Shown one piece after another: positions 6,184 to 64,000 of a stretch of DNA of 64,000 bases (position 1 is its first letter; every line of letters begins with the position of its first letter). The stretch is from an uncultured Alphaproteobacteria bacterium (GTDB lineage: Bacteria > Pseudomonadota > Alphaproteobacteria > Bin95), in assembly GCA_937891825.1 (NCBI GenBank), contig CALAHN010000081.1, forward strand, positions 6,700 to 70,699, given 5' to 3'. The translations under genes and the position numbers were made by a program. A model generated the notes under the pieces. It searched no databases, had not been told where the DNA came from, and was given only the letters and a program-made list of their open reading frames with translations.

Positions 6184-6190
6184 CGGGGCG

Positions 6191-6862
6191 CTAGCCGGTT
6201 TCGCTCAAGCGATAGCCGGCGCCGCGGACCGTGTGGAGCAATGGCTTGGCGAAGCCCTTGTCGATCTTGCTGCGCAGGCGGGAGATATGCACGTCGATGA
6301 CGTTGGTCTGCGGGTCGAAATTATACTCCCAGACATTTTCCAGCAGCATGGTCCGGGTCACCACCTGATCGGCGTTGCGGGCCAGATATTCCAGCAGCTT
6401 GAATTCCCGCGGCTGCAGGTCGATCCGGGCGCCGCCCCGTTGCACCCGGCGCGTCAGGAGGTCGATTTCAAGGTCGGCGACGCGCATGCCGGTCGGCGGT
6501 TCGTCGCCGCGCCGCCGGGTCAGGGCTTCGATCCGGGCGAGCAGTTCCGCAAAGGCATAGGGCTTGACCAGATAATCGTCGCCGCCGGCTTTCAGCCCCT
6601 TGACCCGGTCGTCGACCTGGCCGAGCGCCGAGAGGAACAGGATCGGCGTCGTATCGCCGGAAGCGCGCAACGTGCTGGCGGCGGCGAGGCCGTCCATGCC
6701 GGGCAGCATGCGGTCCAGCACGATGACGTCATAGCCGCTCGCAGCCATCATCACGCCGTCTTCGCCGGTGGCTGCATGGTCGGCGGTGTCGCCATGCTCG
6801 CCAAGCCCCTTGACCATGTAGGCGGCGGCTTCCCGATCGTCTTCGATAACAAGAATGCGCAT
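6191..6862 (-). CDS. OmpR-family response regulator (REC + winged helix)
   Basis: 223 aa; MRILVIEDD...VIVLDRMLPGMDG receiver, C-terminal DVHISRLRSKID wHTH; 7 nt upstream of kinase gene. Confidence 0.9.
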   Translation of the reverse strand: MRILVIEDDREAAAYMVKGLGEHGDTADHAATGEDGVMMAASGYDVIVLDRMLPGMDGLAAASTLRASGDTTPILFLSALGQVDDRVKGLKAGGDDYLVKPYAFAELLARIEALTRRRGDEPPTGMRVADLEIDLLTRRVQRGGARIDLQPREFKLLEYLARNADQVVTRTMLLENVWEYNFDPQTNVIDVHISRLRSKIDKGFAKPLLHTVRGAGYRLSETG

Positions 6863-6919
6863 GATGGCTTCCGTCCCCCCGGAACGGCGTCACGCGGCCG
6901 TCGGCCAGGATAACGCCTA

Positions 6920-6967
6920 GATCAAACCAACCTTAGGCGGAATCGCCTAAGGTTGGATAATTTGATC
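6920..6967. repeat. Palindromic intergenic repeat element, copy 1 (gatcaaa-ccaaccttaggcg-gaat-cgcctaaggttgg-ataa-tttgatc)
   Basis: Near-perfect 22-bp arms with 4-nt loop; homologous copies at 6998-7038 and 39630-39677. Confidence 0.7.
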
Positions 6968-6997
6968 GCTATCAATAAGATAGAACATGGACCGCGC

Positions 6998-7038
6998 TTA
7001 TCCAGCTTTCGGCGATTCCGCCAAAAGCTGGATTGATC
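6998..7038. repeat. Palindromic intergenic repeat element, copy 2 (inverted relative to copy 1; ttat-ccagctttcggcg-attc-cgccaaaagctgg-attgatc)
   Basis: Shares core GGCG-(GAAT/ATTC)-CGCC and flanking arms with copy 1, with compensating stem substitutions. Confidence 0.6.
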
Positions 7039-7136
7039 TGGCGGGCAGTATAGCGTTTGCCGCTTGGCATTACGTTAAAGACGGCGCTTGACCGATCCGC
7101 CCCCCGGCGCTGGCGCCAGGGGACAAATCCGTCGGA

Positions 7137-8636
7137 TCAGGATAGCGGCGCGGCGACGAAGCGGTCATTGCCGTTGATCCGGATCAGCAGCAGCACGGCG
7201 CTGCGGCCGGCTTCCTTCGCCATCCGGATCTTGTCGGCGGCGTCGCTCGGGTCGCTGACGGGATCGCCCGCGACCGCCAGCAGGACGGCGCCGGGGGCGA
7301 CGCCCTTTTCCCGAAGCGGACTATCGTCGGCAAGTGCGGCGATCAGCACGCCGGACGTATCGGCGCTGACGCCCGCGGCGCGCCTGGCGGCGGCGTCGAG
7401 CGGCGCGAGCGTCAGGCCAAGCGCGCCTGCGTTCGCGGCATCAGGCTGCGCCGTCGCCGCCAGCGTCGCTTCGTCAGGCAGGGTCCCCAGTTTCACCCGG
7501 AGCGTTTTCTCCTTGTTGTCGCGCCAGATCAGCAACTGCGCTGTGTCGCCCGGCGTGATGCCTGCGATGACGCGCGGCAGCTTCGGCATTTCGTCGATGC
7601 GCTCATCGTCGACCGCCAGGATGACGTCGCCGACTTTCAGCCCGGCCGCTTCGGCGGGGCCGCCGCTCGCGACGTGGGAGACGATTGCGCCTTCAGCCTT
7701 GTCCAGGCCGACGCCAGCCGCGATGTCGCTTGAGACGCCTTGGATCGAAACGCCGAGCCAGCCGCGCTGGACTGTTTGACCGGCCTTCAATTGCGCGATC
7801 ACGGACTTCGCCAGGTTGGACGGGATGGCGAAGCCGATGCCGACGCTGCCGCCGGTCGGCGAGAAGATCGCCGTGTTCACGCCGATGACTTTGCCTTCGA
7901 GGCTGAACGCCGGCCCGCCGGAATTGCCCTTGTTGATCGGCGCGTCGATCTGCAGGAAGTCGTCATAGGGTCCGGCGCCGATGGAGCGGCCGCGGGCCGA
8001 AATGATGCCGGTCGTGACCGTGTGGTCCAGGCCGAAGGGGTTGCCGACGGCGACGATCCAGTCGCCGACCTCGGCCTTGTCGCTATCGCCGAAGGCGACG
8101 TAAGGGAACGGCTTACGGCGCTCGACCTTGAGGAGCGCAAGGTCGCTGCGGCTATCGGCGCCGACAAGCGTGGCGTTGAGCTTCTCGCCATCCTGCAGGG
8201 TGACGATGATCTTTTCGGCGCCCGCCACCACGTGGTTATTGGTGACGACATGGCCTTCGGCGTCGATGATGAACCCGGACCCGAGCCCGGTACGGGGGCG
8301 TTGGGGGCCAGGCGCGCCTTGCGGCATCCGGTCGCCGAAGAAGCGTTCGAAGAATTCCCGCATGCCGGGCGGCAGGTCTTCGACCGACGGCGCTTCGGCG
8401 GCGCCGGCTTTGGCGGTGACTTCGATGTGAACGACGGCAGGAGCGACCGCTTTCACAACTGGCGAGAAGCTCGCCGGTCCGCCGGAGGGAGTGATCGCCT
8501 GCGCATGGGCTTGCCCGAATGTCGGCAGGCCATGACCCAAGGGCGCCAATGCGGCGCCGGCGGCCAGGCCGGCAGCAAGTACGGAAACCAGCCCGATACG
8601 CTTGACGAATGGACGCTGAGGACGGTCGTTGCCCAT
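7137..8636 (-). CDS. degP: DegP/HtrA (Do) family periplasmic serine endoprotease with two PDZ domains
   Basis: 499 aa; signal peptide; catalytic His/Asp/Ser motifs (VTNNHVV, DLALLKV, GNSGGPAF). Confidence 0.9.
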   Translation of the reverse strand: MGNDRPQRPFVKRIGLVSVLAAGLAAGAALAPLGHGLPTFGQAHAQAITPSGGPASFSPVVKAVAPAVVHIEVTAKAGAAEAPSVEDLPPGMREFFERFFGDRMPQGAPGPQRPRTGLGSGFIIDAEGHVVTNNHVVAGAEKIIVTLQDGEKLNATLVGADSRSDLALLKVERRKPFPYVAFGDSDKAEVGDWIVAVGNPFGLDHTVTTGIISARGRSIGAGPYDDFLQIDAPINKGNSGGPAFSLEGKVIGVNTAIFSPTGGSVGIGFAIPSNLAKSVIAQLKAGQTVQRGWLGVSIQGVSSDIAAGVGLDKAEGAIVSHVASGGPAEAAGLKVGDVILAVDDERIDEMPKLPRVIAGITPGDTAQLLIWRDNKEKTLRVKLGTLPDEATLAATAQPDAANAGALGLTLAPLDAAARRAAGVSADTSGVLIAALADDSPLREKGVAPGAVLLAVAGDPVSDPSDAADKIRMAKEAGRSAVLLLIRINGNDRFVAAPLS

Positions 8637-8818
8637 GGTGTCGCCTTTCTATCGGAGTGCAGATTGCGTGGTCGGTGAGGTCTATATAGGGCGCATCTGC
8701 TTACGCCATGCTGTCCGGCGCATGAAATCTTCGTAATCCGGCGAAAGCATGGCGATGTTTTCCTGGGCCGACTTCCGCTATGGTCCCGCGCCTTCGCCCG
8801 GAATGCCTGGAACGACCG

Positions 8819-13369: not shown

Positions 13370-14392
13370 CTACCGCGAGCCCGGCGTGTGTTTCAGATAG
13401 GATTGCCGGTCGCCGGTGCGGACCGAGATGTCGCGCAGACGATTATCGCGAAGGATGTTGAGGCGGACGGTCGCGCCGGCCGGACCCCGCGCCCAGAGCG
13501 CGCGATAGAATTCCGGCAGGTCGCTCACGTCTTCGCCCGCGACGCCGACGATGGCGTCGCCGATCTTCAGGTTCGAGCGGGCGGCGGGCCCGGTCTCAAC
13601 CATGCCGGCGATGACAAGCGCGCCGTCGGCTTCGGTCACGAACATGCCGAGCCAGGGCCGCGGCTCGCGCTTGGCGTGGCCGGTCGCGGCCATATCCTGG
13701 ATGATCGCGCCCAGCATATCGATCGGCACGAACATGTTGCCGGCCGGCGAGGTTTCGGCCGGCAGCACGTCCTGCACATAGAGCGACCCGATGCCGATCA
13801 GCTTGCCAGCGGGCGTCAGCAGGGCGGCGCCGCTCCAATGGGGGTGCGGCGGCGCGGTGAAGAGCGCCTCGTCGACCAGGTATTCCCAGTAGCCCGCGAA
13901 CTCGCGCTTCGAGAGCAGGCGCACCGTCTGGCCATAGCTTAACCCGCCGCCGGCGAGCACGGTCAACTCTGCCCCGGTCCCGACGTCCCTGGCGGAGCCG
14001 AGCGGGATCGGCCGGGCGTCGAACGGCTCCGTCAGGCGGACGAGGCCGTAGCCGGTCGCCTGATCGTAGCCGACGACTTCCGCGGATTTGGCGGCGCCGG
14101 CGTGATCGACCAGCGAAACCGTGGTCGCTTCGGTGATCAGGTAGCCGATGGTCAGGCAAAGGCCGTCCTGGTCGATCAGCACCGCGTTGCCTTCGCGCTT
14201 GACGCCGAGATGCTGGGCGGTGAAAGCGTCCGGCGGGGCTTTGGCGTGCAACGTGAACACGGCGCGACTTGCCGCCGCGACGTCATACTCCAGTTTATCG
14301 GGCCTGGGACGCAGATCGGGTTGGACCGATTCGCGGCCAGGGAAATCGTCGCCGCCGTATTCGGCGCCGTTCGTGCGTTCCGTGCCGGCCAT
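13370..14392 (-). CDS. Trypsin-like (S1C) peptidase-fold protein with C-terminal PDZ domain; catalytic Asp not evident
   Basis: 340 aa; region aligns with DegP protease domain (HAGAAKSAEVV ~ HVVAGAEKIIV; HWSGAAL ~ GNSGGPAF) then a PDZ-like IGDAIVGVAGEDV segment. Confidence 0.6.
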   Translation of the reverse strand: MAGTERTNGAEYGGDDFPGRESVQPDLRPRPDKLEYDVAAASRAVFTLHAKAPPDAFTAQHLGVKREGNAVLIDQDGLCLTIGYLITEATTVSLVDHAGAAKSAEVVGYDQATGYGLVRLTEPFDARPIPLGSARDVGTGAELTVLAGGGLSYGQTVRLLSKREFAGYWEYLVDEALFTAPPHPHWSGAALLTPAGKLIGIGSLYVQDVLPAETSPAGNMFVPIDMLGAIIQDMAATGHAKREPRPWLGMFVTEADGALVIAGMVETGPAARSNLKIGDAIVGVAGEDVSDLPEFYRALWARGPAGATVRLNILRDNRLRDISVRTGDRQSYLKHTPGSR

Positions 14393-22889: not shown

Positions 22890-22949
22890 GGAGCAGCTCC
22901 CTCTCAATCGCAGTGTGTTATGGGGCGTTTGGCGGCCCGCGGCCAGGGG

Positions 22950-24248
22950 TCAGGCGGCGCCGAAGACCCGTTCGAACAGCGTATCGAGATGGATCAGCTG
23001 GCGCTCGGGGTCGAAGGCGGCTTCAAGCTTGGCGCAGGTGACGCGGCCGGCGATCTCCGGGTCGGCTTTCAGGCGGCTCAGGAAGTCCCCGCCATGGCGC
23101 CAGACGTCCATGGCGTTCGCCTGGACCAGGCGATAGGCGTCTTCCCGCGATACGCCCGCCTGGGTGAGGGCCAGCAGCACATGCTGGGAGAACGCGAGCC
23201 CGCCCATCCGGTCCATGTTCGCCTGCATGCGCTCGGGATAGACCAGCAGCTTCTCGATCATGCCGGCGAGGCGGACCAGGGCGAAATCCAGCGTCACGGT
23301 CGTGTCCGGCGCGAGCATGCGCTCGACCGAGGAATGGGAGATGTCCCGTTCATGCCAAAGCGCGACGTTCTCCATGGCCGGCGTCACGGCGGCGCGGACG
23401 AGGCGGGCGAGGCCGGTCAGGTTTTCCGAAAGGACGGGGTTCCGCTTGTGCGGCATCGCGGAGGAGCCCTTCTGGCCCTGATGGAAATACTCTTCCGCCT
23501 CCAGGACTTCCGTCCGCTGCAGATGGCGAACTTCCACGGCGAAGCGTTCGATCGCGCTGGCGATCACCGCCAGCACCGAAAAGAACATCGCGTGGCGGTC
23601 GCGGGGAATGACCTGGGTCGAGATCGTTTCCGGCGTCAGGCCCATCTTGGCCGCGACATGCGCTTCGACGCGGGGGTCGATCGACGCGAAGGTGCCGACG
23701 GGGCCGGAAATCGCGCAGGTCGCAATCTCGGCGCGGGCGGCTTCCAGGCGCTTGCGGTTGCGGGCGAATTCCGCGTAGTGGCCGGCCAGCTTCAGGCCGA
23801 ATGTCGTCGGTTCCGCATGAATGCCGTGGCTGCGGCCGATGGTGATGGTCCGCTTGTGCTCGATGGCGCGGGTCTTGAGCGCCGCCAGCACCCGGTCGAT
23901 ATCCGCCAGCAGCAAATCCGATGCGCGGGCGAGCTGCACCGAAAGGCAGGTGTCGAGCACGTCGGACGAGGTCATGCCCTGGTGGACGAACCGTGCTTCC
24001 GGTCCGACATGCTCAGCCAGATTGGTCAGGAAGGCGATGACGTCGTGGCGGGTTTCCGCTTCGATGGCGTCGATCCGGTAGACCTCGAACTTGCCGCGCG
24101 CCCAAACGGCTTCCGCGGCTTCCCTGGGCACGACGCCCAGTTCGGCCTGGGCGTCCATGGCGTGAGCTTCGATCTCGAACCAGATCTGGAACTTGGTTTC
24201 CGGCGACCAGATATCGGCCATCTCGGGACGGGAATAGCGGGGGATCAT
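22950..24248 (-). CDS. purB: Adenylosuccinate lyase
   Basis: 432 aa; MIPRYSRPEMADIWSPETKFQIWFEIEAHA canonical PurB N-terminus; fumarate-lyase signature GSSAMPHKRNP. Confidence 0.95.
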   Translation of the reverse strand: MIPRYSRPEMADIWSPETKFQIWFEIEAHAMDAQAELGVVPREAAEAVWARGKFEVYRIDAIEAETRHDVIAFLTNLAEHVGPEARFVHQGMTSSDVLDTCLSVQLARASDLLLADIDRVLAALKTRAIEHKRTITIGRSHGIHAEPTTFGLKLAGHYAEFARNRKRLEAARAEIATCAISGPVGTFASIDPRVEAHVAAKMGLTPETISTQVIPRDRHAMFFSVLAVIASAIERFAVEVRHLQRTEVLEAEEYFHQGQKGSSAMPHKRNPVLSENLTGLARLVRAAVTPAMENVALWHERDISHSSVERMLAPDTTVTLDFALVRLAGMIEKLLVYPERMQANMDRMGGLAFSQHVLLALTQAGVSREDAYRLVQANAMDVWRHGGDFLSRLKADPEIAGRVTCAKLEAAFDPERQLIHLDTLFERVFGAA

Positions 24249-24419
24249 GCAGGGACTCCGGAACGGGCGGCAGCGCGCGAGGGGGAGTTATCGCGGCGGG
24301 CGCGGGAACGGTCAACGGCCGCTCGCCTGTGGCCGGCCCGATCCGAATCCGCTGTTGACTTGGCCGGCCTCGCCGCCCCACCTAAAGCGCTCGCGTCAGC
24401 CGTCAGGAAGTTTGGCCCC

Positions 24420-25364
24420 ATGTATCGCCCCAAGTATCGATCCTTCCGCGCCGCATGCCTGCTCGCAACCGGCGCCTTGTTGGCCGCCGCGCCAGCGAAG
24501 GCAGCGTCGCCGCCTGACCTCGATAGATCGTCGGTCTGCGGGTTCCTCCCCTACCGCGACGCCGGTCCCGACCGGTTCGCCGGCCCCCGGCGCCAGGCAG
24601 ATAAAGTAGCGAAGGTCGGGCCGCAGACGACCTATTCGCTCGCCTGGGATTTGGCGCGCCCGGTGCTGCTGGCGGCCGAACTCGCGGAGGACCTGCTCGC
24701 CGGGCAAAGCGTCGACGCCGTGCGCGACGTCCATGGCGGGGCGCTCAGCCTCGGGGAATATATGCTGCATGCGGCGCAGAACTTCGCGGCGGCGCCGCCC
24801 GCGCCGGAGAGCGATGATTTCCGCGTGTTGCTCGCGGCCGAGCGCCCGGCGAATTTCCACCGCATCTACGCGCATGCCAAGCAAGGCTACGAGGAACTGG
24901 CCGCGATGCTGGCGCCCGACGCCGCCCCGCCCGATCCGGCGACGCTCAAGCGGATCGCGGCATCCTGGCGGCCGACCTATGGGATGCTGGCCAAGGCCCA
25001 GGCGGACGACAAGCGGATCGAACTGATCGCGACCGACCTGGACGCCGATGCGGTCGCGGAGAAGGAAGCGGTCGCCTGCCTCGCCGCCGCCATCGCAGCC
25101 GCGGCCGGCGACTGGGCCGACGCGGCCGCCGTCGCCAAGGCCGCAGCGGCGCGCTGGCCGCTCCGCCCGACCGTCAACGCCCGCGCGCTCGCGAAGGCGG
25201 CGCGCGTGCCGTTCTTCGAGTATGAGGACGCTGGCGACGCGCTCGCGGCCAAAATCGAAGCGCTGCCGGACGGCCCGGTCGACGATGCTGCGTTCCGTGA
25301 TGTTGGCAAGGCCTACGTAGCCTTCGTCGCCGCATCGAAAGCGTATTACGAAGCGCAGCGCTGA
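24420..25364 (+). CDS. Hypothetical Ala-rich secreted protein (signal peptide; no recognisable domain)
   Basis: Real start ATG 24420 inside long ORF 22920..25364 (upstream part is antisense to purB); MYRPKYRSFRAACLLATGALLAAAPAKAASP signal. Confidence 0.5.
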   Translation: MYRPKYRSFRAACLLATGALLAAAPAKAASPPDLDRSSVCGFLPYRDAGPDRFAGPRRQADKVAKVGPQTTYSLAWDLARPVLLAAELAEDLLAGQSVDAVRDVHGGALSLGEYMLHAAQNFAAAPPAPESDDFRVLLAAERPANFHRIYAHAKQGYEELAAMLAPDAAPPDPATLKRIAASWRPTYGMLAKAQADDKRIELIATDLDADAVAEKEAVACLAAAIAAAAGDWADAAAVAKAAAARWPLRPTVNARALAKAARVPFFEYEDAGDALAAKIEALPDGPVDDAAFRDVGKAYVAFVAASKAYYEAQR

Positions 25365-37817: not shown

Positions 37818-38717
37818 ATGAATCAACGACGGCCGCGTGGCCGGAACAACAATAGCAATAATAATAACAATAATAATAACCGAGGGCGCAACCAAAGCCA
37901 ACGGAACCAATCGTTTGACAGCAACGGGCCCGAAGGGCGCGTGCGCGGTTCGGCGACACAGGTGCTTGAGCGCTACCTGGCGCAAGCCCGTGACGCCCAG
38001 GCGGCGGGCGACGGCGTTCTGGCCGAAAACTTCTTCCAGCATGCCGAGCATTACTATCGCGTGTTGAGCGCTGCGAACGCCCAGTTCGAGCAGCAGCAGC
38101 GGGACCGTCAGGGGCCGTATGACGAGCGGGATCGCCGCCCGCCCCGCAACGACGGCGGCGACGACAGCGACGATAATCGCGACGACAATCGCGACGATGG
38201 CTGGCAGGCCGACGACGCGCGCTCCGACGGCCGGAATGACGGCCGCAACGAAGGGCGCGGCGACAATCGCAGCGACAATCGCAATGACGGCCGTTTCGAC
38301 AATCGCGGCGACAGCCGGACCGAAGGCCGCAACGAGCCTCGCAATGACGGGCGTCAGGAAAGCCGGGGCGAAGGCCGCGGCGACAATCGCAACGACATGC
38401 GGGGCGATAATCGCGGCGAGACCCTGGATCACCAACGGGACGCGCAGCGCGACGACGGCGACCGCGACGATGGCGATCGCGCCGCCGGCCAGCAGATGGC
38501 CCACGACAGCGGCGCCGCGCCGGACGAAGCCCCGCCGCGCCCACGGGCGCGCCGCAAGGCCCCGGCGAAGTCCGAAGCTGCGGCGAGCGACGCCGCGCCC
38601 TCCCGCGAGGCTGGCTCCGGCGACGCCGGCGCCGATATCGATGTCGCGTTCCTGAAAGACGCCCCGAAGCCACGCCGCCGTCGCCGGCCGGTCGTCGAAA
38701 CCGAACCGGCTGACTGA
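37818..38717 (+). CDS. DUF4167 domain protein with poly-Asn tract and R/D/N-rich tandem low-complexity repeats
   Basis: 299 aa; MNQRRPRGRNNNSNNNNNNNNRGRNQ...VLERYLAQARDAQAAGDGVLAENFFQHAEHYYRV conserved N-domain, then ~25 iterations of (G/D)RNDGR(N/G)E-type units. Confidence 0.8.
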   Translation: MNQRRPRGRNNNSNNNNNNNNRGRNQSQRNQSFDSNGPEGRVRGSATQVLERYLAQARDAQAAGDGVLAENFFQHAEHYYRVLSAANAQFEQQQRDRQGPYDERDRRPPRNDGGDDSDDNRDDNRDDGWQADDARSDGRNDGRNEGRGDNRSDNRNDGRFDNRGDSRTEGRNEPRNDGRQESRGEGRGDNRNDMRGDNRGETLDHQRDAQRDDGDRDDGDRAAGQQMAHDSGAAPDEAPPRPRARRKAPAKSEAAASDAAPSREAGSGDAGADIDVAFLKDAPKPRRRRRPVVETEPAD

Positions 38718-38718
38718 G

Positions 38719-39555
38719 ATGCCGAAGCGCCTGACGCGGCGACAGCATCAAGACTATCTGACGAACGGGTTTGTCGCCCCGATCCAGGCCTTTACGCCGG
38801 CCGAGGCCGCAAGCTTTCGCCAGCGCTTCGAGGCCTATGAGGCCAGACATGGCGGCTGGCACGAACTCTCCAAGGGTCAGAAACTTTACCTGATCCAGAC
38901 CTGGGCCGCAGAGCTTGCCTCAGCGCCCGCGGTGCTGGATGCGGTCGAGGATGTTCTTGGCCCGGACCTGATGGTCTGGGGCCTCAGCCTGTTCGTGAAG
39001 GATGCCGGCGCGCCCGGCTTCGTCACCTGGCATCAGGATTCGACATATTGGGGCTTGAGCGAGCCCAAGGTCGCGACGGCATGGATCGCGCTTTCGCCGG
39101 CGACCAGGGCGGCCGGCTGCATGAAAATGCTGCCAGGCTCCCATCGCTTCGATCAGCAGCCCCACAAGGACACGCTCGCCGCCGATAATCTTCTGACGCG
39201 CGGCCAGGAAATTGCGATGGCCGTCGACGAAGCGGACGCGGTCTACTGTCCGCTGGATGCGGGCGCCCTCTCCTTGCACCATGTCCGCACGGTCCATGCT
39301 TCGGACCCCAATCGCGGCGACGACCGGCGGATCGGCGTCGCCATCCGCTACATCGCGCCGGATGTGCGACAGGTGAACGGCGAAAAGGATTCGGCCTGGC
39401 TGGTCCGCGGCGAGGACCGGCACGGCAATTTCATCCATGAGGTCCCGCCCAGGGCCGATATGGACCCAGCCGCCCTCGCAGAGCGCGACCGGATCATGCA
39501 ATTACGCCAGGGCGTCCTCTTCAAAGGCGTCGCAGGCGCCCCCGCGCGGTCCTGA
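38719..39555 (+). CDS. Phytanoyl-CoA dioxygenase (PhyH) family Fe(II)/2-oxoglutarate-dependent oxygenase
   Basis: 278 aa; starts 1 nt after DUF4167 stop; VTWHQDSTYW (HxD), later His ligand region. Confidence 0.8.
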   Translation: MPKRLTRRQHQDYLTNGFVAPIQAFTPAEAASFRQRFEAYEARHGGWHELSKGQKLYLIQTWAAELASAPAVLDAVEDVLGPDLMVWGLSLFVKDAGAPGFVTWHQDSTYWGLSEPKVATAWIALSPATRAAGCMKMLPGSHRFDQQPHKDTLAADNLLTRGQEIAMAVDEADAVYCPLDAGALSLHHVRTVHASDPNRGDDRRIGVAIRYIAPDVRQVNGEKDSAWLVRGEDRHGNFIHEVPPRADMDPAALAERDRIMQLRQGVLFKGVAGAPARS

Positions 39556-39629
39556 CCGCCTGCGTCGCGGCGGCTAGAGCATGACGCGCTCAAATGAGCG
39601 CGTGGTCCATCCTCTACCTTATTAATATC

Positions 39630-39677
39630 GATCAAATTATCCAGTCTTAGGCGTTTCCGCCTAAGACTGGTTTGATC
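39630..39677. repeat. Palindromic intergenic repeat element, copy 3 (gatcaaa-ttat-ccagtcttaggcg-tttc-cgcctaagactgg-tttgatc)
   Basis: 44/48 identical to reverse complement of copy 1 (6920-6967); the two stem differences are compensatory (aacc/ggtt vs agtc/gact). Confidence 0.7.
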
Positions 39678-39687
39678 TAGCCGTGCT

Positions 39688-40527
39688 TCAGCTTGCGAGC
39701 GCTTGGCCGGGCGGCGCTTCGCGGGGTTGAAAGAGGCCGCGGGTTGTCGGGTCGGCGACGAAATCGATTGCCGCGCCTGCGGCCGTCTCCTTGTCGCCAA
39801 GGTAAAGATAGCCGTCGGGATTGAGCTGCCGCGCGACAGAATCCAGCACCGTCTTGCGGCGGTCCTGGTCGAAATATGACAGGACGTTGCGGCAGAAGAT
39901 GACGTCGAAGCAGCCGATGTGGGATGGGTCGTCCAGCAGATTGAACTGCTCGAAGCGCACGGTCTTGCGCAGGTCCGACTTGATCCGCCAACGATCGCCG
40001 GCTTGCTTGAAGTGGGCGACCAGATGCCGGATCGGCAGGCCGCGCTGGACCTCGAACTGGCTGTATTCCCCAGCCCTGGCGTGGGCGAGCGCGCTTTCGG
40101 AGATGTCGGTCGCGAGCAACTGAACGCGCCATCCCGAGAGAGCCGCCTTGCGATCGGCGAGCAACATGGCGAGGGAATAGGCTTCCTGGCCGGTCGAGGC
40201 GGCGGCGGACCAGATCCGCAACGTCCGCGTCTCGGCGCGGGCGGCGAGCAGGGCCGGCAGCGCCGTCTCGCTGAAGTGGCGGAAGGGCGCGCCATTCCGG
40301 AAGAAGCAGGTTTCGTTCGTCACGATCGCTTCGACGACAGCGCGCACGGCTTCTGGCGCCCGGGTCGTCATGATGTGCTGGATGAGGTGGTTGATGTCGT
40401 CATGGCCGAACTGCTGGGCCACGGGCGCGAGGCGGGCGTCGGACGCATAGCCGCTATCCGCCTCCAGAACCTGCCCGCATTCCCGGGCGATCAGCGCGGT
40501 CAGAAATTTCTGGTGGGTTGGGGTCAT
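39688..40527 (-). CDS. cheR: Chemotaxis protein methyltransferase CheR
   Basis: 279 aa; N-terminal all-alpha domain + SAM MTase (IWSAAASTGQEAYSLAML, FCRNVLSYFD). Confidence 0.9.
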   Translation of the reverse strand: MTPTHQKFLTALIARECGQVLEADSGYASDARLAPVAQQFGHDDINHLIQHIMTTRAPEAVRAVVEAIVTNETCFFRNGAPFRHFSETALPALLAARAETRTLRIWSAAASTGQEAYSLAMLLADRKAALSGWRVQLLATDISESALAHARAGEYSQFEVQRGLPIRHLVAHFKQAGDRWRIKSDLRKTVRFEQFNLLDDPSHIGCFDVIFCRNVLSYFDQDRRKTVLDSVARQLNPDGYLYLGDKETAAGAAIDFVADPTTRGLFQPREAPPGQALAS

Positions 40528-40602
40528 GGGAAAAGCCTCCCGCGGCCGAAGGCGCGCGCGTCGGTCGTGGCGGCGAAATGCGCAATCGAAAATCCAGCCA
40601 TG

Positions 40603-42534
40603 TCAGATCGCCTCTTCTGCGGCGCTGTCCGCGTGGCGGACCGTCGCCGACACGGCCTCGACCAACTCGTTCAGGTCTGTCGCATCGAGATAGCGGTCGA
40701 AGCCAGCCTGGCGCAGTTGTTCGCCCCGCGCGGGGTCGGCGGTCGCGGATACGGCGATCAGCGGCGTCGCGGCCCATGCGGGCGATGTCCGAACCGCTTC
40801 GGCGAAGGCGCAGCCGTCCATATCGGCGGCGTCGATATTGCTGAGGATGAGCGCGAACCGCGCGCCGTCCGCTTGCAGCGCCAGGGCTGCCGACGGCCCG
40901 CCCGATGTCGCAACCCGATATCCGGCGCGCTCAAGCAGCGGCTTCAACAGATGCTGGGAGAACGGGCTGTCATCGACGATCAGCACGTGTTTCGGGGCGC
41001 CGGCTTCCGGCGCCGGGACGAGGCCTGCCTGTCGGAAGAACGCCGCCGGATCGACGACCGCGCCGGGCGCCGGCGCATCCCCGATATCCAGGATCTCGCG
41101 GACGATCAGGCCGAGCCGGCGGTCGCCGTCCTGGAGCACGATAAAGGGCCGTCGTCCGCGCGTCCCGACCGGGCGGACAAGGTCGAGGACCGGCAGCATG
41201 GCGCCCAGATAGCGGACCGCCCGTCGTCCGTCGCTTTGCTCGATATCGGCAAGGTCGAGTTCGCCCATGCGGCTGATCGCGGCGAGCGGCACGGCAAGGG
41301 CGGCTTCGCCGCCGCCAATGAATGTCAGATAGGATGCCGCCGCCGGCATGGGCGCATGCTGCTGGCGCGGCAGCGAAACCGAAAGGCAAGCGCCGGCGCC
41401 CGGCTTCGAGTTGACGGAGATCGCGCCGCTCAAGCGTTCGATTTCCGTGAGCGCGACATTCAGGCCGTAGCCCCGGCCGGAAATGGTCGTCACCTGGCCA
41501 GCAGTCGAAAAGCCGGGATGGAAGATCTGGCGGAACAGGGCCTGTTCGGTCATCGCGGCCGCCGCCGCTTCGGTCGCCGATCCGGCGCGCACTAGGCCGG
41601 CGCGAATGGCTTCGGCGTCCAGGCCGCGCCCATCGTCCGCGACCCGGACGATCAGGCGGTCGCCGGCGACAGTGGCGCTGACCGCGATCTGCCCCGCGGC
41701 AGGCTTTCCGGCGGCGCGCCGTTCGTCGGCGGTCTCGATGCCGTGATCGCAGGCATTCCTGACCATGTGCAGCAAGGGGCGCTTGATGGCGTCGAAGGTC
41801 GTCATATCGACCGGGATCGACCCGCCTTTGATGGTGAGGTCGATCTCTTTGCCAAGCGCCTCAGCGAGGCTCGCGACGAGGCGCGGCAGGGATTTCCAGG
41901 CGTCGCCGATGGGGCAAAGCACCGGTTGAGGCGGCGCTGGCGGCAGAGGCTCATGCGCCATGGCGGCCTTTGTCTCGGCAAGCTGACCGGCGACAGACAT
42001 CAGGTCGTCGAACAGATTGACGGTCTCGCGCACCGATCGCAGCGTCGGCGCGATCGTGCTGGCGTCCGCCGGGAAAGGGCGGGGCGACGGCTGGCTGTCT
42101 GCCATGTCGGTCTGAGATGTCGACGACGCGGGGCAAAGCGCCGCCAGGGCACTGACGATATCGGCATCGTCGCCGGCAGGCTCACGACCGGTTGTCTCAA
42201 CCGCGACGACAAGCGCGCGGACGCGGTCGACCGCGTGCAGCACCGCGACGATAGCCTCCGGCGCGGGGGCGAGGCCGCCATCCCGGAAATGCGCCAGCAC
42301 GGTTTCGGTCGCGTGGGTCAGGGCGAGCAGGCGCGGCATGCCAAGGAAGCCGCAAGCGCCCTTGATCGTATGAAAGATGCGGAAAATGCCGTCGAGCAGC
42401 GCGACGTCGCCTGGATTCCGCTCGAGCGCCTGCAGTTGCGCGTCGAGGCCGTCAAGGCGTTCGGCGGCGTCGGCGACGAACTCGGTGATCAGGTCATCCA
42501 TTGTGGCCCTTGCCTCTGTTGCGCCAGCGAACAC
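40603..42534 (-). CDS. CheA-like hybrid histidine kinase (Hpt–dimerisation–HATPase–CheW-like–receiver)
   Basis: 643 aa; Hpt FHTIKGACGFLG; G1/G2 DDGRGLD, GRGYGLNV; CheW-like; C-terminal REC with VLIVDDS but atypical LILSNIDAADMDG and no conserved Lys. Confidence 0.8.
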   Translation of the reverse strand: MFAGATEARATMDDLITEFVADAAERLDGLDAQLQALERNPGDVALLDGIFRIFHTIKGACGFLGMPRLLALTHATETVLAHFRDGGLAPAPEAIVAVLHAVDRVRALVVAVETTGREPAGDDADIVSALAALCPASSTSQTDMADSQPSPRPFPADASTIAPTLRSVRETVNLFDDLMSVAGQLAETKAAMAHEPLPPAPPQPVLCPIGDAWKSLPRLVASLAEALGKEIDLTIKGGSIPVDMTTFDAIKRPLLHMVRNACDHGIETADERRAAGKPAAGQIAVSATVAGDRLIVRVADDGRGLDAEAIRAGLVRAGSATEAAAAAMTEQALFRQIFHPGFSTAGQVTTISGRGYGLNVALTEIERLSGAISVNSKPGAGACLSVSLPRQQHAPMPAAASYLTFIGGGEAALAVPLAAISRMGELDLADIEQSDGRRAVRYLGAMLPVLDLVRPVGTRGRRPFIVLQDGDRRLGLIVREILDIGDAPAPGAVVDPAAFFRQAGLVPAPEAGAPKHVLIVDDSPFSQHLLKPLLERAGYRVATSGGPSAALALQADGARFALILSNIDAADMDGCAFAEAVRTSPAWAATPLIAVSATADPARGEQLRQAGFDRYLDATDLNELVEAVSATVRHADSAAEEAI

Positions 42535-42687
42535 CGGTCAACAAAATCAGGCTAAGCCACAGCGTTTAAGATTCTCTTGAAATTATCCAAGCAATCCGCC
42601 CAAACCCGGCGGGCGTGCGGCGCCGCATGCGAAGCGAGGTCCGGTGCTGGATCAACCCAAAGTATGGCTTGATCGAACCCGTCCTGG

Positions 42688-42728
42688 GCCAGAGCAAGGG
42701 GCGCTCAAGGCGCGCGCGCCTTGCTCTG
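42688..42728 (-). terminator. Hairpin downstream of trxA containing perfect palindrome caaggcgcgcgcgccttg
   Basis: ~50 bp past trxA stop on minus strand; extended arms cagagcaagg...ccttgctctg; no clear U-tract. Confidence 0.3.
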
Positions 42729-42774
42729 AATCGCCAGAAATTCGGTCGATGGAGGGCCGTCAAGCTCTCGCGGA

Positions 42775-43095
42775 TCAGATGTTTTCTTCGATCCAGGCCT
42801 TCAGCGCCGGCTTCGGCGCGGCGCCGACCTTGGTCGCGGCGAGCTGGCCGTTCTTGAACAGCATCAGCGTCGGGATGCCGCGAATGCCGTGGGAGCTTGG
42901 CGTGTTGGGATTGTCGTCGATATTCAGCTTCACGACATCGACCTTGCCTTCAAGCTCGGCCGAGATTTCTTCAAGCGCGGGGCCGATGGCTTTGCAGGGG
43001 CCGCACCATTCGGCCCAGAAATCGACGACGACAGGCTTCTTGGCTTTCAGGACATCGACTTCGAAGCTGGCGTCGGAAGTGGCGCGGGTGGCCAT
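42775..43095 (-). CDS. trxA: Thioredoxin
   Basis: 106 aa; WAEWCGPCK active site. Confidence 0.95.
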
Positions 43096-59625: not shown

Positions 59626-62600
59626 ATGGCCATACATGCGGCGCTCACCCACGTCACCCGCTATGCCTATGACCGTCGGGTTCAGATGGGGCCGCAAGTG
59701 GTTCGCCTCCGGCCGGCGCCGCATGCCCGGACGCCGATCGTCAGCTATGCCCTGAAGATCGAGCCGGAAGAGCATTTCATCAACTGGCAGCAAGACCCGC
59801 ACGGCAATTTTCAGGCGCGCATCGTCTTCCCGGAGCCTGTGACCCATTTCACGGTCACGGTCGATCTCGTCGCCGACATGTCGGTCCTGAACCCGTTCGA
59901 CTTTTTCCTGGAGCCGGACGCCGAGGAACAGCCTTTCACCTATGCGGCCGACCTGAAGGAAGAGCTTGAGCCGTTCCTGAAGCCCACGAGCGGCGGCGAT
60001 CGGTTCATGAAATGGATCAAGAGCCTGCCGCCGAAAAAGGGCCGGACCATCGACTACCTGGTCGCCGTCAACTCCCAGATTCAGCGCGATGTCGAATATC
60101 TCGTTCGCATGGAGCCCGGCGTGCAGACGCCGGAGGAAACCCTGGAACGGGGCAAGGGCTCCTGCCGGGATAGCGGCTGGATGCTGGTGGAGGCGATGCG
60201 GCATCTGGGCTTCGCGGCGCGTTTCGTTTCCGGATATCTCATTCAGTTGAAGCCGGATATCGCGTCCCTCGACGGGCCTTCGGGCGCCGGCTATGACTTC
60301 ACCGATCTCCATGCCTGGACCGAGGTTTACCTGCCGGGCGCCGGCTGGGTCGGGCTCGATCCGACTTCGGGCCTGTTCGCCGGCGAAGGCCATATTCCGC
60401 TCGCCGCGACGCCGAAGCCATCGAGCGCGGCGCCGATCTCCGGCGCTATCGGCGAAGCCGAGGTCGAGTTCAGTTTCGACATGCAGATAACCCGCATCGC
60501 CGAAACCCCGCGCGTGACGAAGCCCTACACGGCGGAGCAATGGCAGGAGATCGATCGGCTGGGCGACCGGATCGACGAAGCGCTCGAAGCAGGCGACGTG
60601 CGCCTGACGATGGGCGGCGAGCCGACATTCGTCTCGATCGATCATGTGGATGCGGAGGAATGGAATACCGGCGCTGTCGGACCGACCAAGCGGCCGCTTG
60701 GCGACAAGCTGATCCGGCGGCTCCAGGCGAAGTTCGCGCCCGGCGGGCTGCTGCATTACGGCCAGGGCAAGTGGTATCCGGGCGAGCAATTGCCCCGGTG
60801 GGCCTTCGCCCTGTTCTGGCGCGTCGATGGCGTGCCGATCTGGCGCGGGACCGGGGCCATCGCCGAGGAAGCGAAGGACTACAAGCCGACCCCAGCCGAC
60901 GCTGGCGCGTTCGCCGCCGGCATCGCGGATCGCCTGGGCGTCGCGTCGGAAGCTGCGATGCCGGTCTATGAGGACCCGGTCCATTTCATCGGCCGCGAAG
61001 CCTGCTTGCCCGACAATGTTACGCCGGGGGATTCCAAGCTCGACGATCCGATGGAGCGCGACCGTCTGGCCCGGGTCTTCAGCCGCGGTCTCTCGACCCC
61101 GGTCGGTTATGTGCTGCCGTTGCAGCGCTGGAACGCCAAGGCCAAGGGCCGCCGCTGGGTCAGCCAGATCTGGAAAACCAGAACCGGTCGGCTGACGCTG
61201 ATCCCGGGCGATTCGCCCATCGGTTACCGCCTGCCGATCGCATCGCTCCCGCATATCGCCGAAGCGCTTTATCCGCGCGTCATTCCTGTCGATCCGTTTG
61301 TCGAGCGGCCGCCGCTCGATCTGCCCGATCCCGTGCGCCAGCCGTTTCTCCAGGGCGCGCCGGATGCGACGCCGTCGCCGCAGGTCCAGTATGAGCAAGG
61401 ACCCGGCGGCCCGGCGCGCGTCGCCATGTCGGTCGAGCCGCGCGACGGCCGCCTGTGCGTGTTCATGCCGCCGACCGAAACGCTTGAGGATTATCTCGAC
61501 CTGCTGGCGGCCGTGGAGGACATGGCCGCCGAGTCCGGCATGCCGATCCATGTGGAAGGCTATGAGCCGCCGCGCGATCCGCGTCTCAACATGATCAAGG
61601 TGACGCCCGACCCCGGCGTGCTGGAAGTGAACATCCAGCCGGCCAGCACCTGGCGCGAAGCCGTCGACATCACCCAGACGCTGTATGAGGAAGCGCGGCT
61701 CTGCCGCCTGGACGCGCAGAAGTTCATGCTCGACGGTCGGCACACCGGCACGGGCGGCGGCAACCACGTCGTGCTTGGCGGAATCTCGCCCGCCCATAGC
61801 CCGTTCCTGCGCCGGCCCGACCTGTTGCGCAGCCTGATCATCTATTGGCAGCGTCATCCGAGCTTGAGCTATCTGTTCTCCGGCATGTTCGTCGGCCCGA
61901 CCAGTCAAGCGCCGCGCATCGATGAAGCCAGGCACGATGCGCTCTATGAGCTTGAGATCGCCTTCTCCCAGATCCCGGGGCCGGAGACTTCATGTCCGCC
62001 CTGGCTGGTCGACCGGATTCTCCGCAACCTCCTGATCGACGTCACGGGCAACACCCACCGGGCCGAGATTTGCATCGACAAGATGTATTCGCCCGACGGG
62101 CCGACCGGCCGGCTCGGCCTCGTCGAGTTCCGCGCCTTCGAGATGCCGCCGCATCCTGAAATGAGCTTGACCCAGCAGTTGTTGCTGCGCGGCCTGATCG
62201 CGATGTTCTGGAAGCAGCCGCTGACCGGCGGCCTGACGCGCTGGGGCACCGGGCTGCATGACCGGTTCATGCTGCCGGCCGCGATCGCAATGGACTTCCA
62301 GGAGGTTATCCAGGACTTGAACGAAGGCGGGTTCGCCTTCGACATGGCATGGTTCGCGCCGCACCTGGAATTCCGCTTTCCCTGCTATGGCCAGATTTCC
62401 TATGGCGGCGTCGATATCGAGATCCGGCAAGCGCTCGAGCCCTGGCATGTCATGGGCGAGGAAGGCGCGGTCGGCGGCACGGTGCGCTATGTCGACTCCT
62501 CCGTCGAGCGCGTGCAGGTCAAGGCGACCGGCCTCGCCGCTGGCCGCTACAAGATCGGCTGCAACGGGTTTGAAGTGCCGTTGACGCCGACCGGCGTCGT

Positions 62601-62928
62601 CGGCGAGCAATTCGGCGGCGTGCGCTACCGGGCCTGGCGTCCGCCCTCCGCCCTGCACCCGACGATCCCGATCGATGCGCCTCTGATCTTCGATCTGTAC
62701 GACACCTGGAGCGGCCGCGCCGTCGCCGGGTGCGCCTATCATGTCAGCCATCCGGGCGGACGCAGTTTCGATGTCTTCCCGGTCAACGACTATGAGGCGG
62801 AAAGCCGGCGGCTGGCGCGCTTTTCGGAGATCAGCCACACGGCCGGCAAGTCGCCGCCGCCGCGCGCTGCGCCGAACGCCGCCTTTCCGATGACGCTCGA
62901 TCTCCGCCGCGCTCGTGCGGGCGCCTGA
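59626..62928 (+). CDS. Large transglutaminase-like protein (Bact_transglu_N + transglutaminase/cysteine-protease core + DUF2126-type C-terminal region)
   Basis: 1100 aa; intact Cys-His-Asp core ([30 protein letters not shown]; [21 protein letters not shown]); SD TAAGGA. Confidence 0.85.
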
Positions 62929-63082
62929 CGGAATTACGGGATTGGAAAGTATTTCGGCGCATAGCCAAGGCGTCGGCGCACGCCGAGCCGCCCGTATCGC
63001 TGAACCTGAAGCGTAGTATGGAGAACGATGGGTGAACGAATTGAAGCTGCTATCCAGCGCCCGGCCGGCGGCCGTCAGCCTG

Positions 63083-64000
63083 ATGAGCGGATATCGACCC
63101 GTCCCCGGCGCCTTCGACGAGATGATGGGGCCGGACGGGACGGCGCGGCCGCATTGGCAGCCGTTTCTCGATGAGATCGGCAAGCTCTCCGAACCGGCGC
63201 TGAAGCGTCTCTGGAACACCACCCAGCGTCTCGTCCGGGAGAATGGCGCCACCTACAACGTCCATGATGAGACGGGCGATGGCGACCGGCCCTGGCGGAT
63301 GGACCCGATCCCCTTCCTGATCGCGCCGGAGGAATGGCGGGTTCTGGAGGAAGGCCTGATCCAGCGGGCGACGCTGTTGAACGCCATCGCTTCCGATATC
63401 TATGGCGGCCAGAGCTTGTTGCGGCAGGGGCTGCTGCCGGCGTCGCTGGTCTTCGGCAATCCGAATTTTCTGCGCCCGCTGCATGGCGTCGAGCCGCCAG
63501 GCGGCGTCCATCTGAACCTGATGGCCTTCGATGTGGCGCGCGGCGCCGACAATCGCTGGTGGGTCTTGAGCAACCGCACGGAATCGCCCGCCGGCGCCGG
63601 ATATGCGCTGGAAAACCGCATCGTCCTCTCCAGGACAATGCCGGAGACGCTGCGCGCGCTCCGCGCTCATCGCCTCGCCGAATTCTTCCAGGCGATGAGC
63701 GACGCCATGATCGCCCATACCGGCCAGGACAGCCCGCTCGCCGTGCTGCTGACGCCGGGCCCCCACAGCGAAACCTATTTCGAGCACGCCTATCTCGCCC
63801 GGTATCTGGGCTTCCCGCTGGTGGTCGGCGCCGATCTGACGGTCCGCGACAACAAGGTCTATCTGAAGACCCTGGACGGCCTGAAGCAGGTGCATCTGAT
63901 CTTCCGCCGGGTCACCGGGGAGAACAGCGATCCCCTGGAATTGCGCGCCAAATCCCATGACGGCGTCGCCGGTCTGGTGGAGGCGATCCGGGCCGGCACA
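63083..64000 (+). CDS. Circularly permuted type-2 ATP-grasp protein (COG2308 family), 3'-truncated by window edge; absent from the supplied ORF track
   Basis: Open frame from ATG 63083 to window end: MSGYRPVPGAFDEMMGPDGTARPHWQPFLDEIGKLSEPALKRLWNTTQRLVRENGATYNVHDE...WRMDPIPFLIAPEEWRVLEEGLIQRATLLNAIASDIYGGQ...YLGFPLVVGADLTV, the characteristic N-terminal half of this family. Confidence 0.8.
   Translation, partial: MSGYRPVPGAFDEMMGPDGTARPHWQPFLDEIGKLSEPALKRLWNTTQRLVRENGATYNVHDETGDGDRPWRMDPIPFLIAPEEWRVLEEGLIQRATLLNAIASDIYGGQSLLRQGLLPASLVFGNPNFLRPLHGVEPPGGVHLNLMAFDVARGADNRWWVLSNRTESPAGAGYALENRIVLSRTMPETLRALRAHRLAEFFQAMSDAMIAHTGQDSPLAVLLTPGPHSETYFEHAYLARYLGFPLVVGADLTVRDNKVYLKTLDGLKQVHLIFRRVTGENSDPLELRAKSHDGVAGLVEAIRAGT

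Follow-up and report, generated by a model that had tools for sequence, protein, structure and literature searches.

Deletion remnant of an F5-class chemotaxis operon in an uncultured alphaproteobacterium: a reduced CheA with a pseudo-receiver beside an intact CheR

CheA kinases with two CheW-like domains, such as Azorhizobium caulinodans CheA, Azospirillum brasilense CheA1 and Rhodospirillum centenum CheA1, are almost all members of the F5 (flagellar) class (PMC10782961). The first of their CheW-like domains is the canonical "Class 3" P5, and the second, a divergent "Class 5" domain, has no known function (bioRxiv 10.1101/2022.05.07.491035). The receiver of F5 CheAs acts as a phosphate sink or is required for P1 dephosphorylation, and in a large survey no CheA was without P1, P3, P4 and P5 (PMC10782961). 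Here we analyse a relative of these hybrids in a 64,000-nucleotide stretch of DNA from an uncultured alphaproteobacterium (assembly GCA_937891825.1, contig CALAHN010000081.1, positions 6,700 to 70,699; hereafter the window), where a reduced cheA, designated cheA' and encoding the protein CheA', lies next to cheR on the minus strand. Residues are numbered on the 632-amino-acid (aa) protein; adding 11 gives the 643-aa numbering of the longest open reading frame (ORF). Our comparisons indicate that CheA' descends directly from the F5 hybrids. Of their parts it has kept P1 and P4, the receiver fold and the second CheW-like domain, and P2 is absent as in three full-length relatives scanned with Pfam. 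Gone are the P3 hairpin and the canonical first CheW-like/P5 domain, and its receiver appears non-phosphorylatable (N555, A607). Measured against the core domain set of the survey (PMC10782961), P1 and P4 are present in CheA', and P3 and the canonical P5 are missing. The locus further differs from F5 operons in the absence of cheW and cheB, and CheA' is only about 45% identical to orthologs that share 68% with each other. What is new here, judging from homology and synteny, is a lineage-specific, degenerate F5 CheA with a pseudo-receiver that deletion has left paired with CheR. The locus is a clear case of reductive evolution and not a new kind of signalling system.

Relatives that carry the complete operon at the same site reveal the history of the locus. 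On metagenome contig MRWG01002119.1 (L094), the gene order is addA-trxA-cheA(full length)-cheW-cheB-cheR, followed by the convergent genes PhyH-DUF4167-prmC-prfA. Both flanks match the window (PhyH 78% and PrfA 92% identical), and the L094 CheA has the canonical receiver Asp and Lys. In L007/L093 and in L009, a GTDB metagenome-assembled genome (MAG), the amidase-APH-NTP-transferase-addB-addA-trxA side is arranged as in the window and leads into a complete cheA-cheW-cheB-cheR. Since the full operon occupies the same site in L094, L007/L093 and L009, the window represents the derived, reduced state. A prior reading of the window from its sequence alone (the sequence-only reading) had held that this is not a typical che operon context, a claim that these loci overturn. 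None of the other 78 addA-anchored GTDB loci has che genes after trxA. The AddA proteins of the clade formed by the window, L007, L094 and L009 are closest to those of uncultured Alphaproteobacteria, Rhodospirillales and Kiloniellaceae MAGs, and a search for intermediate forms, with AddA against GTDB genomes and with CheR against JGI metagenomes, returned none closer than L007 and L094. Another GTDB MAG, L056 (Rhodospirillales bacterium SD4486), has no che operon after trxA (13528-13845); identity is 86% between its TrxA and the L007 protein and 50% between its AddA and the window's. Either, then, the operon arrived at this site in the window/L007/L094/L009 clade, or L056 has lost it completely.

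The class of the ancestral operon follows from the same relatives. The best database matches of CheA' are its syntenic orthologs, and the orthologs P0003, P0002 and P0005 show the F5 hallmark of two CheW-like domains plus a C-terminal receiver. CheA' itself no longer bears it, with one incomplete CheW-like domain and operon partners reduced to cheR. In the wider set of CheR-anchored loci the order is cheA-cheW-cheY-cheB-cheR, matching F5, and in Arenibaculum the che operon adjoins fliI and fliJ. We conclude that cheA'-cheR is very probably the remnant of an F5-class cheA-cheW-cheB-cheR operon at its ancestral site after addA-trxA. By the same comparisons, the CheA-CheR pairing is a product of deletion and not a designed two-gene module.

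The cheA' coding sequence occupies 40603..42501 on the minus strand and encodes a reduced F5-class CheA of 632 aa, open over all 632 codons. The 643-aa protein named in the sequence-only reading corresponds to a real ORF (40603..42534, minus strand) that extends to a GTG at 42534. Its length does not hold, as translation likely starts at the ATG at 42501: this start gives an MDDL N-terminus that aligns with residue 1 in all homologues, and its product is identical to the 632-aa database protein P0001, which occurs on 13 contigs.

We compared CheA' domain by domain with a family alignment of 121 sequences (A1; the window protein plus 120 relatives), with Pfam and with an AlphaFold model. Its nearest relatives are about 830-1000 aa long and comprise Hpt, P3, P4, two CheW-like domains and a receiver. 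Pfam places Hpt at 14-107, HATPase_c at 252-391, CheW at 402-484 and Response_reg at 517-628 (643-aa numbering), which bears out the four-domain description in the sequence-only reading, the CheW match being partial and just below cut-off. The model has a mean predicted local distance difference test score (pLDDT) of 84.5, with confident P1, P4, beta-rich CheW-like and receiver folds. To quantify conservation, ancestral states were inferred at sites where L007 and L009 agree.

P1/Hpt (residues 1-125; 42127..42501, minus strand; Pfam Hpt 57.9 bits; pLDDT >90) is the best-preserved domain, with 90% of conserved ancestral sites retained. Its phospho-accepting His, H44 of the FHTIKG box, is encoded at 42370-42372, and all four family-invariant residues of this box (H, T, K and G; 120/120 relatives) are kept. 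A disordered P1-P3 linker (residues 126-157; 42031..42126, minus strand) follows, shorter than in relatives in alignment A1, with pLDDT <50 for residues 127-165. The lack of a recognisable P2, already remarked upon, is real and normal in this family: three full-length relatives (P0002, P0003, P0005) have no P2 Pfam match either. Of P3 there remains one helix (residues 158-180) and the Pro-rich stretch EPLPPAPPQPVL (together 41926..42030, minus strand). EPLPPAPPQPVL stands where the second P3 helix would be, and the deletion in the hairpin spans about 22 alignment columns (gap at columns 286-306). H-kinase_dim (PF02895) gives no match in CheA' at E <= 0.1 in a Pfam scan, compared with 52-59 bits in relatives; the model has a single low-confidence helix here, then disorder, and only 32% of conserved sites are retained. 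In the P4 kinase/ATP-binding domain (residues 193-378; 41368..41925, minus strand; Pfam HATPase_c 58 bits), our motif table lists the N box, G1, F box and G2 glycines as all intact. The modelled P4 superposes on Thermotoga maritima CheA P4 with a template modelling (TM) score of 0.93-0.96 and a root-mean-square deviation of 1.3-2 A; 67% of conserved sites are retained, and the ATP-binding fold is predicted to be intact.

The largest loss lies immediately after P4. At residues 379-390 (RQQHAPMPAAAS; 41332..41367, minus strand; alignment A1 columns 502-675), RQQHAPMPAAAS marks the junction of an in-frame deletion of about 170 alignment columns that removed the canonical P5 (the first CheW-like domain, P5a) together with its linker; 51 of the 57 conserved columns of P5a are gone. 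What follows is a remnant of the second, Class 5 CheW-like domain (P5b; residues 391-482; 41056..41331, minus strand), from which about 20 residues are missing near the C-terminus. The Pfam CheW match of CheA' reaches 23.1 bits, under the 23.5 gathering cut-off, and covers profile positions 2-91 of 138, while the modelled remnant is beta-rich (pLDDT ~90) and retains 68% of conserved sites. In blastp searches, this piece matches only ortholog P5b (E = 5e-17), and neither P5a nor CheW, so that by homology the surviving domain is the second of the two in the ancestral CheA and the canonical P5 is the one deleted. We also considered a deletion chimera, with the CheW-like part drawn from CheW or P5a and the receiver from CheB, and rejected it because the matches are only to P5b and to CheA's own receiver. 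All deletions in CheA' are in frame and run along domain boundaries. The sequence-only reading overlooked the losses of the P3 hairpin and the canonical P5, which are functionally weightier than the receiver change on which it dwelt.

That change is nevertheless confirmed. The receiver (residues 505-632; 40606..40989, minus strand) scores 46.8 bits against Response_reg (PF00072; cut-off 30.2) with a fold predicted at pLDDT ~90. It is 48% identical to the receiver of the ortholog CheA, does not match that of CheB, and retains 73% of conserved sites. The acidic pair (VLIVDDS; D510 and D511, CheY D12/D13) is kept as the earlier reading had it, and the position of CheY T87 is S585 (PLIAVS), aligned to the family AL[ST] and likewise kept. 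As that reading also proposed, the acceptor position (CheY D57) is occupied by Asn: N555 (codon 40837-40839) stands where 120/120 relatives have Asp in the 121-sequence family alignment. The conserved Lys is absent too, with A607 (codon 40681-40683) at the CheY K109 position, which is Lys in 120/120 relatives. Alignments to solved CheY and receiver structures agree, pairing "lilsN" with "iisD" so that Asn lies opposite the acceptor Asp, with no Lys at K109. The beta3-alpha3 active-site loop has been rewritten from DIEMP to NIDAA (M558A and P559A besides the D-to-N change), and N555 and A607 are also present in the variant strain L090, 1.1% diverged. S554, beside N555, could presumably offer an alternative phospho-site after the CheY D57N/Ser56 precedent, for which a literature search was unproductive; this is unlikely because the conserved Lys is missing as well.

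A pseudo-receiver is defined as a PF00072-recognisable domain whose catalytic residues are missing (PMC12632262). With a PF00072 match and two of five active-site residues gone, the CheA' receiver is by its alignments a pseudo-receiver under this definition, in line with the original suspicion. Caulobacter ShkA and Synechococcus CikA likewise fuse a kinase to a PF00072 domain without active-site residues, and their pseudo-receivers inhibit autophosphorylation and respond to ligands (PMC12632262). They differ from CheA' in being HisKA-type kinases with conserved and functionally proven pseudo-receivers, whereas that of CheA' is a recent product of a single branch within a CheA lineage, and a ligand or a regulatory role for it would be by analogy only.

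The rates of change at the locus are uneven. AddA is 63% identical between L007 and L094, and the window AddA is 60.5% identical to L007 and 62% to L094 (L009 lies outside at 53-57%). For CheA, the L007-L094 value is 68%, compared with 45% for the window against either. Because AddA distances are near-equal whereas CheA stands at 45% versus 68%, the acceleration is on the window branch. CheR gives 64% between L007 and L094, 58% for window-L007 and 54% for window-L094. These identities indicate an acceleration specific to the window branch that is strong in cheA and mild in cheR.

The accelerated changes are not spread at random over the protein. At sites conserved to at least 95% across the family, CheA' keeps 68% of the ancestral residues, a share that falls to 48% in both intermediate classes and to 22% at variable sites (Fisher p = 2e-7); the corresponding control figures are 98%, 91%, 78% and 46%. 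Substitutions in CheA' thus avoid conserved sites, which indicates that selection is still shaping the protein under a much weaker constraint. Its GC content at third codon positions (GC3) equals that of neighbouring genes. Comparison of the window with the 1.1%-diverged strain L089/L090 points the same way. The last 181 codons of cheA' show 4 synonymous changes and 1 non-synonymous change (ratio of non-synonymous to synonymous rates, dN/dS, ~0.09; P(neutral) 0.02), the latter being A635T (643-aa numbering) in the C-terminal tail. For cheR the counts are 7 and 4 (dN/dS ~0.19, P(neutral) 0.007), and for PhyH 7 and 2 (dN/dS ~0.09, P(neutral) 0.001). No further variant-strain fragments usable for cheA' dN/dS are on record in the databases searched.

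We lean towards the view that CheA' still has a selected function, as the intact ORF, the retained motifs and H44, the avoidance of conserved sites and the mostly synonymous polymorphism favour function over a dead relic. The full account that we prefer, an F5 operon remnant with a residual, receptor-uncoupled function, stands slightly above even chances when taken as a whole. In this account, cheW and cheB were cleanly deleted on the window branch. In-frame deletions took from CheA the second P3 helix, all of the canonical P5 and some 20 residues of P5b, and substitutions in the receiver removed its acceptor Asp, its conserved Lys and, within the active-site loop, Met-Pro. Canonical arrays need rings of P5 and CheW and a CheA dimer mediated by P3. 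Without the canonical P5, P3 and a cognate CheW, CheA' would be unable to form standard receptor-CheW-CheA core units, so that any activity it has would be uncoupled from receptors. On its own, P4 reaches about 2% of wild-type activity, which increases with dimerisation through P3 (bioRxiv 10.1101/2021.08.17.456688); from this we infer that CheA' is at best a weak autokinase. Its likeliest residual role would be that of a soluble His-phosphotransfer or low-level autokinase protein, since H44 and all ATP-binding motifs are kept and P1 is the most constrained domain.

In such a role, P1 of CheA' would pass phosphate to a regulator encoded elsewhere or be phosphorylated by another CheA. There is precedent for the latter in CheA3 of Cereibacter (Rhodobacter) sphaeroides, which acts with CheA4: a P1 phosphorylated by another kinase. 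Like CheA', CheA3 has degenerate internal domains and an intact P1, which in CheA3 is functional; CheA3 was originally complete and decayed through redundancy (PMC10782961). The two differ in that CheA3 has a functional P5 and a dead P4, whereas CheA' keeps its P4 motifs and has lost the canonical P5, and in that a whole family conserves CheA3/CheA4, while CheA' stands as a singleton with no partner kinase gene nearby. The receiver would no longer serve as a phosphate sink or aid in P1 dephosphorylation, given N555 and A607. Together with the Class 5 domain it would persist as a non-phosphorylatable structural, regulatory or docking module, by analogy with ShkA and CikA. CheR would still methylate the chemoreceptors of another system in the genome; these are probably encoded elsewhere, as CheR is intact and only mildly accelerated. 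A non-chemotactic function of CheA' is possible.

Several observations weigh against this account and feed its strongest competitor, in which cheA' lost its function with cheW and cheB and is decaying, a stop codon or frameshift merely not having been acquired yet, while cheR survives through another chemosensory system or is also on its way out. As many as 32% of near-invariant family sites have changed in CheA', compared with 2% in controls; family-invariant residues are lost in every domain, including V345Y and D348N in the G2 region of P4 at positions invariant in 120/120 relatives. Constraint looks heavily relaxed and P3 fully released from it, and of the four "core" CheA features three have been damaged or are absent, P3 and the canonical P5 being gone. 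CheA fragments that lack P3 are nearly inactive (bioRxiv 10.1101/2021.08.17.456688). The polymorphism signal in cheA' amounts to five changes in one third of the gene, and the window shows no MCP, CheW or CheY that could act as a partner. Neutral, substitution-only simulations at the observed excess divergence speak for continued selection at GC equilibria of 0.68-0.85, where only 0.5-10% of runs kept the ORF open; at an extremely GC-rich equilibrium the open fraction is higher, up to ~10-30%, and survival by chance is then only moderately improbable.

The architecture is also a singleton. We searched with two word-indexed methods over 5.8 billion clusters and one exhaustive HMMER run over 1.84 billion representatives, and in neither set did any protein other than CheA' itself share its architecture; the next-best match is about 40% identical and full length. 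Three apparent P5-less CheAs (P0133, P0135, P0146) proved to be frameshifted or contig-truncated full-length genes. P0133 and P0135, F5-type cheA genes from other organisms on contigs of 38 kb and 497 kb, turn into out-of-frame junk from within the first CheW domain and are real pseudogenes or assembly frameshifts. In the lineages that these searches cover, the architecture has been kept nowhere else, and this also counts against a residual function, since the design has not proved durable.

Even so, we consider a functionless cheA' doubtful. Every deletion is in frame and at a domain boundary, the catalytic motifs and the phospho-His are retained, substitutions are strongly biased away from conserved sites, and four of the five strain differences are synonymous. 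F5 cheA genes whose frame is truly broken (P0133, P0135) look different. With indels added to the simulation, which covers substitutions only, the ORF would be much less likely to survive by chance.

A second alternative grants CheA' a function and makes more of it: the protein may have been repurposed as a soluble, array-independent signalling protein in which the Class 5 domain and the non-phosphorylatable receiver form a self-contained regulatory or docking unit. This unit would control P4-to-P1 phosphorylation or hand P1~P to a non-chemotaxis regulator. We regard this as unlikely; if true, CheA' would be a natural dissection of the role of the second CheW-like domain once the canonical P5 is gone.

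It is more improbable still that CheA' remains receptor-coupled, with its Class 5 domain docking it on arrays of CheW and methyl-accepting chemotaxis proteins (MCPs) encoded elsewhere in a working chemosensory pathway. An intact and conserved CheR implies MCP substrates somewhere, the Class 5 domain and the receiver are retained under graded constraint, and deletion of CheW2 plus receiver abolishes chemotaxis in A. caulinodans (PMC10782961; bioRxiv 10.1101/2022.05.07.491035). Yet the deleted domain is the homologue of the canonical receptor- and CheW-binding P5, the remaining CheW-like domain is incomplete and under the Pfam cut-off, P3, which the dimeric core unit needs, is gone, and there is no MCP or CheW gene within 64 kb.

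We give very little credence to a native minimal Che- or Wsp-like (alternative cellular function, ACF) module built as a CheA-CheR pair, even though CheA-receiver hybrids are common in ACF/Wsp-type systems (PMC10782961) and the pair has neither flagellar nor che neighbours in the window. Both the nearest homologues and the syntenic orthologs are F5 CheAs of the dual-CheW type in cheA-cheW-(cheY)-cheB-cheR operons, no GGDEF or other Wsp-type output gene lies in the window, and the pairing arose by deletion on the window branch and recurs nowhere else in the databases searched. WspE/FrzE-type hybrids resemble CheA' in having a C-terminal receiver and no P2, but they belong to another CheA class with phosphorylatable receivers and complete P3 and P5, and their operons carry their own MCP, CheW and output genes, of which the cheA' locus has none; we see no evolutionary link. 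Given the dual-CheW architecture of the relatives, the operon order and the fliI/fliJ neighbours, a Wsp/ACF origin is excluded on homology and synteny. Of the sequence-only label "reduced Che-like or Wsp-like module", the first half therefore stands and the second falls. Finally, although the sequence comes from metagenome assemblies, an assembly or sequencing artefact behind the deletions or the D-to-N change can be set aside, as the identical cheA' locus recurs in several independent assemblies and samples (L001-L005) and the diverged L090 carries the same N555 and A607.

The partner gene, cheR (39688..40527, minus strand), encodes a 279-aa chemoreceptor glutamate methyltransferase (PF01739, 189 bits). 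Residues 11-248 align to solved CheR structures (E = 1e-46), so that both the SAM-binding domain and the N-terminal helical domain are represented, and by these matches cheR is intact; the Pfam CheR_N model gives no match on the window protein, compared with 32 bits for the L007 ortholog. The 75-bp cheA'-cheR spacer (40528..40602, minus strand) carries the cheR ribosome-binding site, GGGAGG, and takes the place that cheW-cheB occupy in relatives; tblastn found no cheW or cheB remnants, and across the 64 kb no remnant of cheW, cheB or cheY turned up. The earlier observations that trxA lies upstream and cheR 75 bp downstream are both correct. So is the statement that the 64 kb hold no MCP, CheW, CheB or CheY gene, save for a stretch of ~1.1 kb (24.3-25.4 kb) without a recognisable gene. 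No flagellar genes lie beside cheA'-cheR.

Upstream, trxA (42775..43095, minus strand) is the synteny anchor common to loci with the complete operon. The 273-bp trxA-cheA' intergenic region (42502..42774, minus strand) is the presumed promoter region and has an AT-richer stretch immediately 5' of the cheA' start. We found no sigma-70 consensus match in it, no conserved promoter or regulator motif upstream of cheA common to the window and L007 or L009, and no Rfam match in the whole window. Downstream, the anchor is a PhyH-family dioxygenase gene (38719..39555, plus strand), convergent with cheR. A perfect hairpin with a 13-bp stem (39641..39670), likely a bidirectional terminator, lies between the two. 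Their spacer (39556-39687) contains an AT-rich segment of ~78 bp that holds this hairpin (CCAGTCTTAGGCG-TTTC-CGCCTAAGACTGG), flanked by the short inverted repeat AGATCAAA / TTTGATCG. The segment occurs once in the window. L094 lacks it, and so does the 1.1%-diverged strain L089, where a GC-rich spacer of 54 bp stands in its place; the segment may be a small palindromic element that inserted recently and acts as a bidirectional terminator.

Other parts of the window add a few observations. The DUF4167 gene next to PhyH (37818-38717, plus strand) encodes a conserved N-terminal domain and a long Asp/Arg/Asn/Gly-rich low-complexity tail in which repeats such as GRNDGRNEGRGDNR recur; identity to the L094 ortholog is 67% overall and 91% in the N-terminal segment. 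An 814-aa ORF at 22920-25364 (plus strand), with neither a Pfam match nor a database record, is probably spurious, as the opposite strand (22950-24248) encodes adenylosuccinate lyase with a better GC3 signature. At ~4800-8640 (minus strand), an ordinary two-component pair of a HAMP-HisKA-HATPase kinase and an OmpR-type regulator (~4.8-6.9 kb), the latter holding the sole other receiver domain in the window, lies beside a DegP/HtrA-like PDZ protease; the module looks like an envelope-stress type. A conserved gene cluster fills 59626-64000 (plus strand) and continues on L092; it encodes a transglutaminase-DUF2126 protein of 1100 aa, along with a circularly permuted ATP-grasp/Alpha-E protein and another protein that is transglutaminase-like.

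For annotation, the locus carries a caution: the label "CheA/hybrid kinase" does not here imply chemotaxis. As reconstructed from its relatives, cheA'-cheR is a clean example of how a che operon is dismantled, by whole-gene deletions, in-frame excision of domains and inactivation of a phosphate-sink receiver. CheA' is a CheA descendant that breaks the P1/P3/P4/P5 rule (PMC10782961) on a datable branch, with intact orthologs at hand for comparison. If it is functional, CheA' would be a natural construct for what the Class 5 domain and the receiver do without array coupling, and it would also ask whether a monomeric, P5-less CheA can signal.

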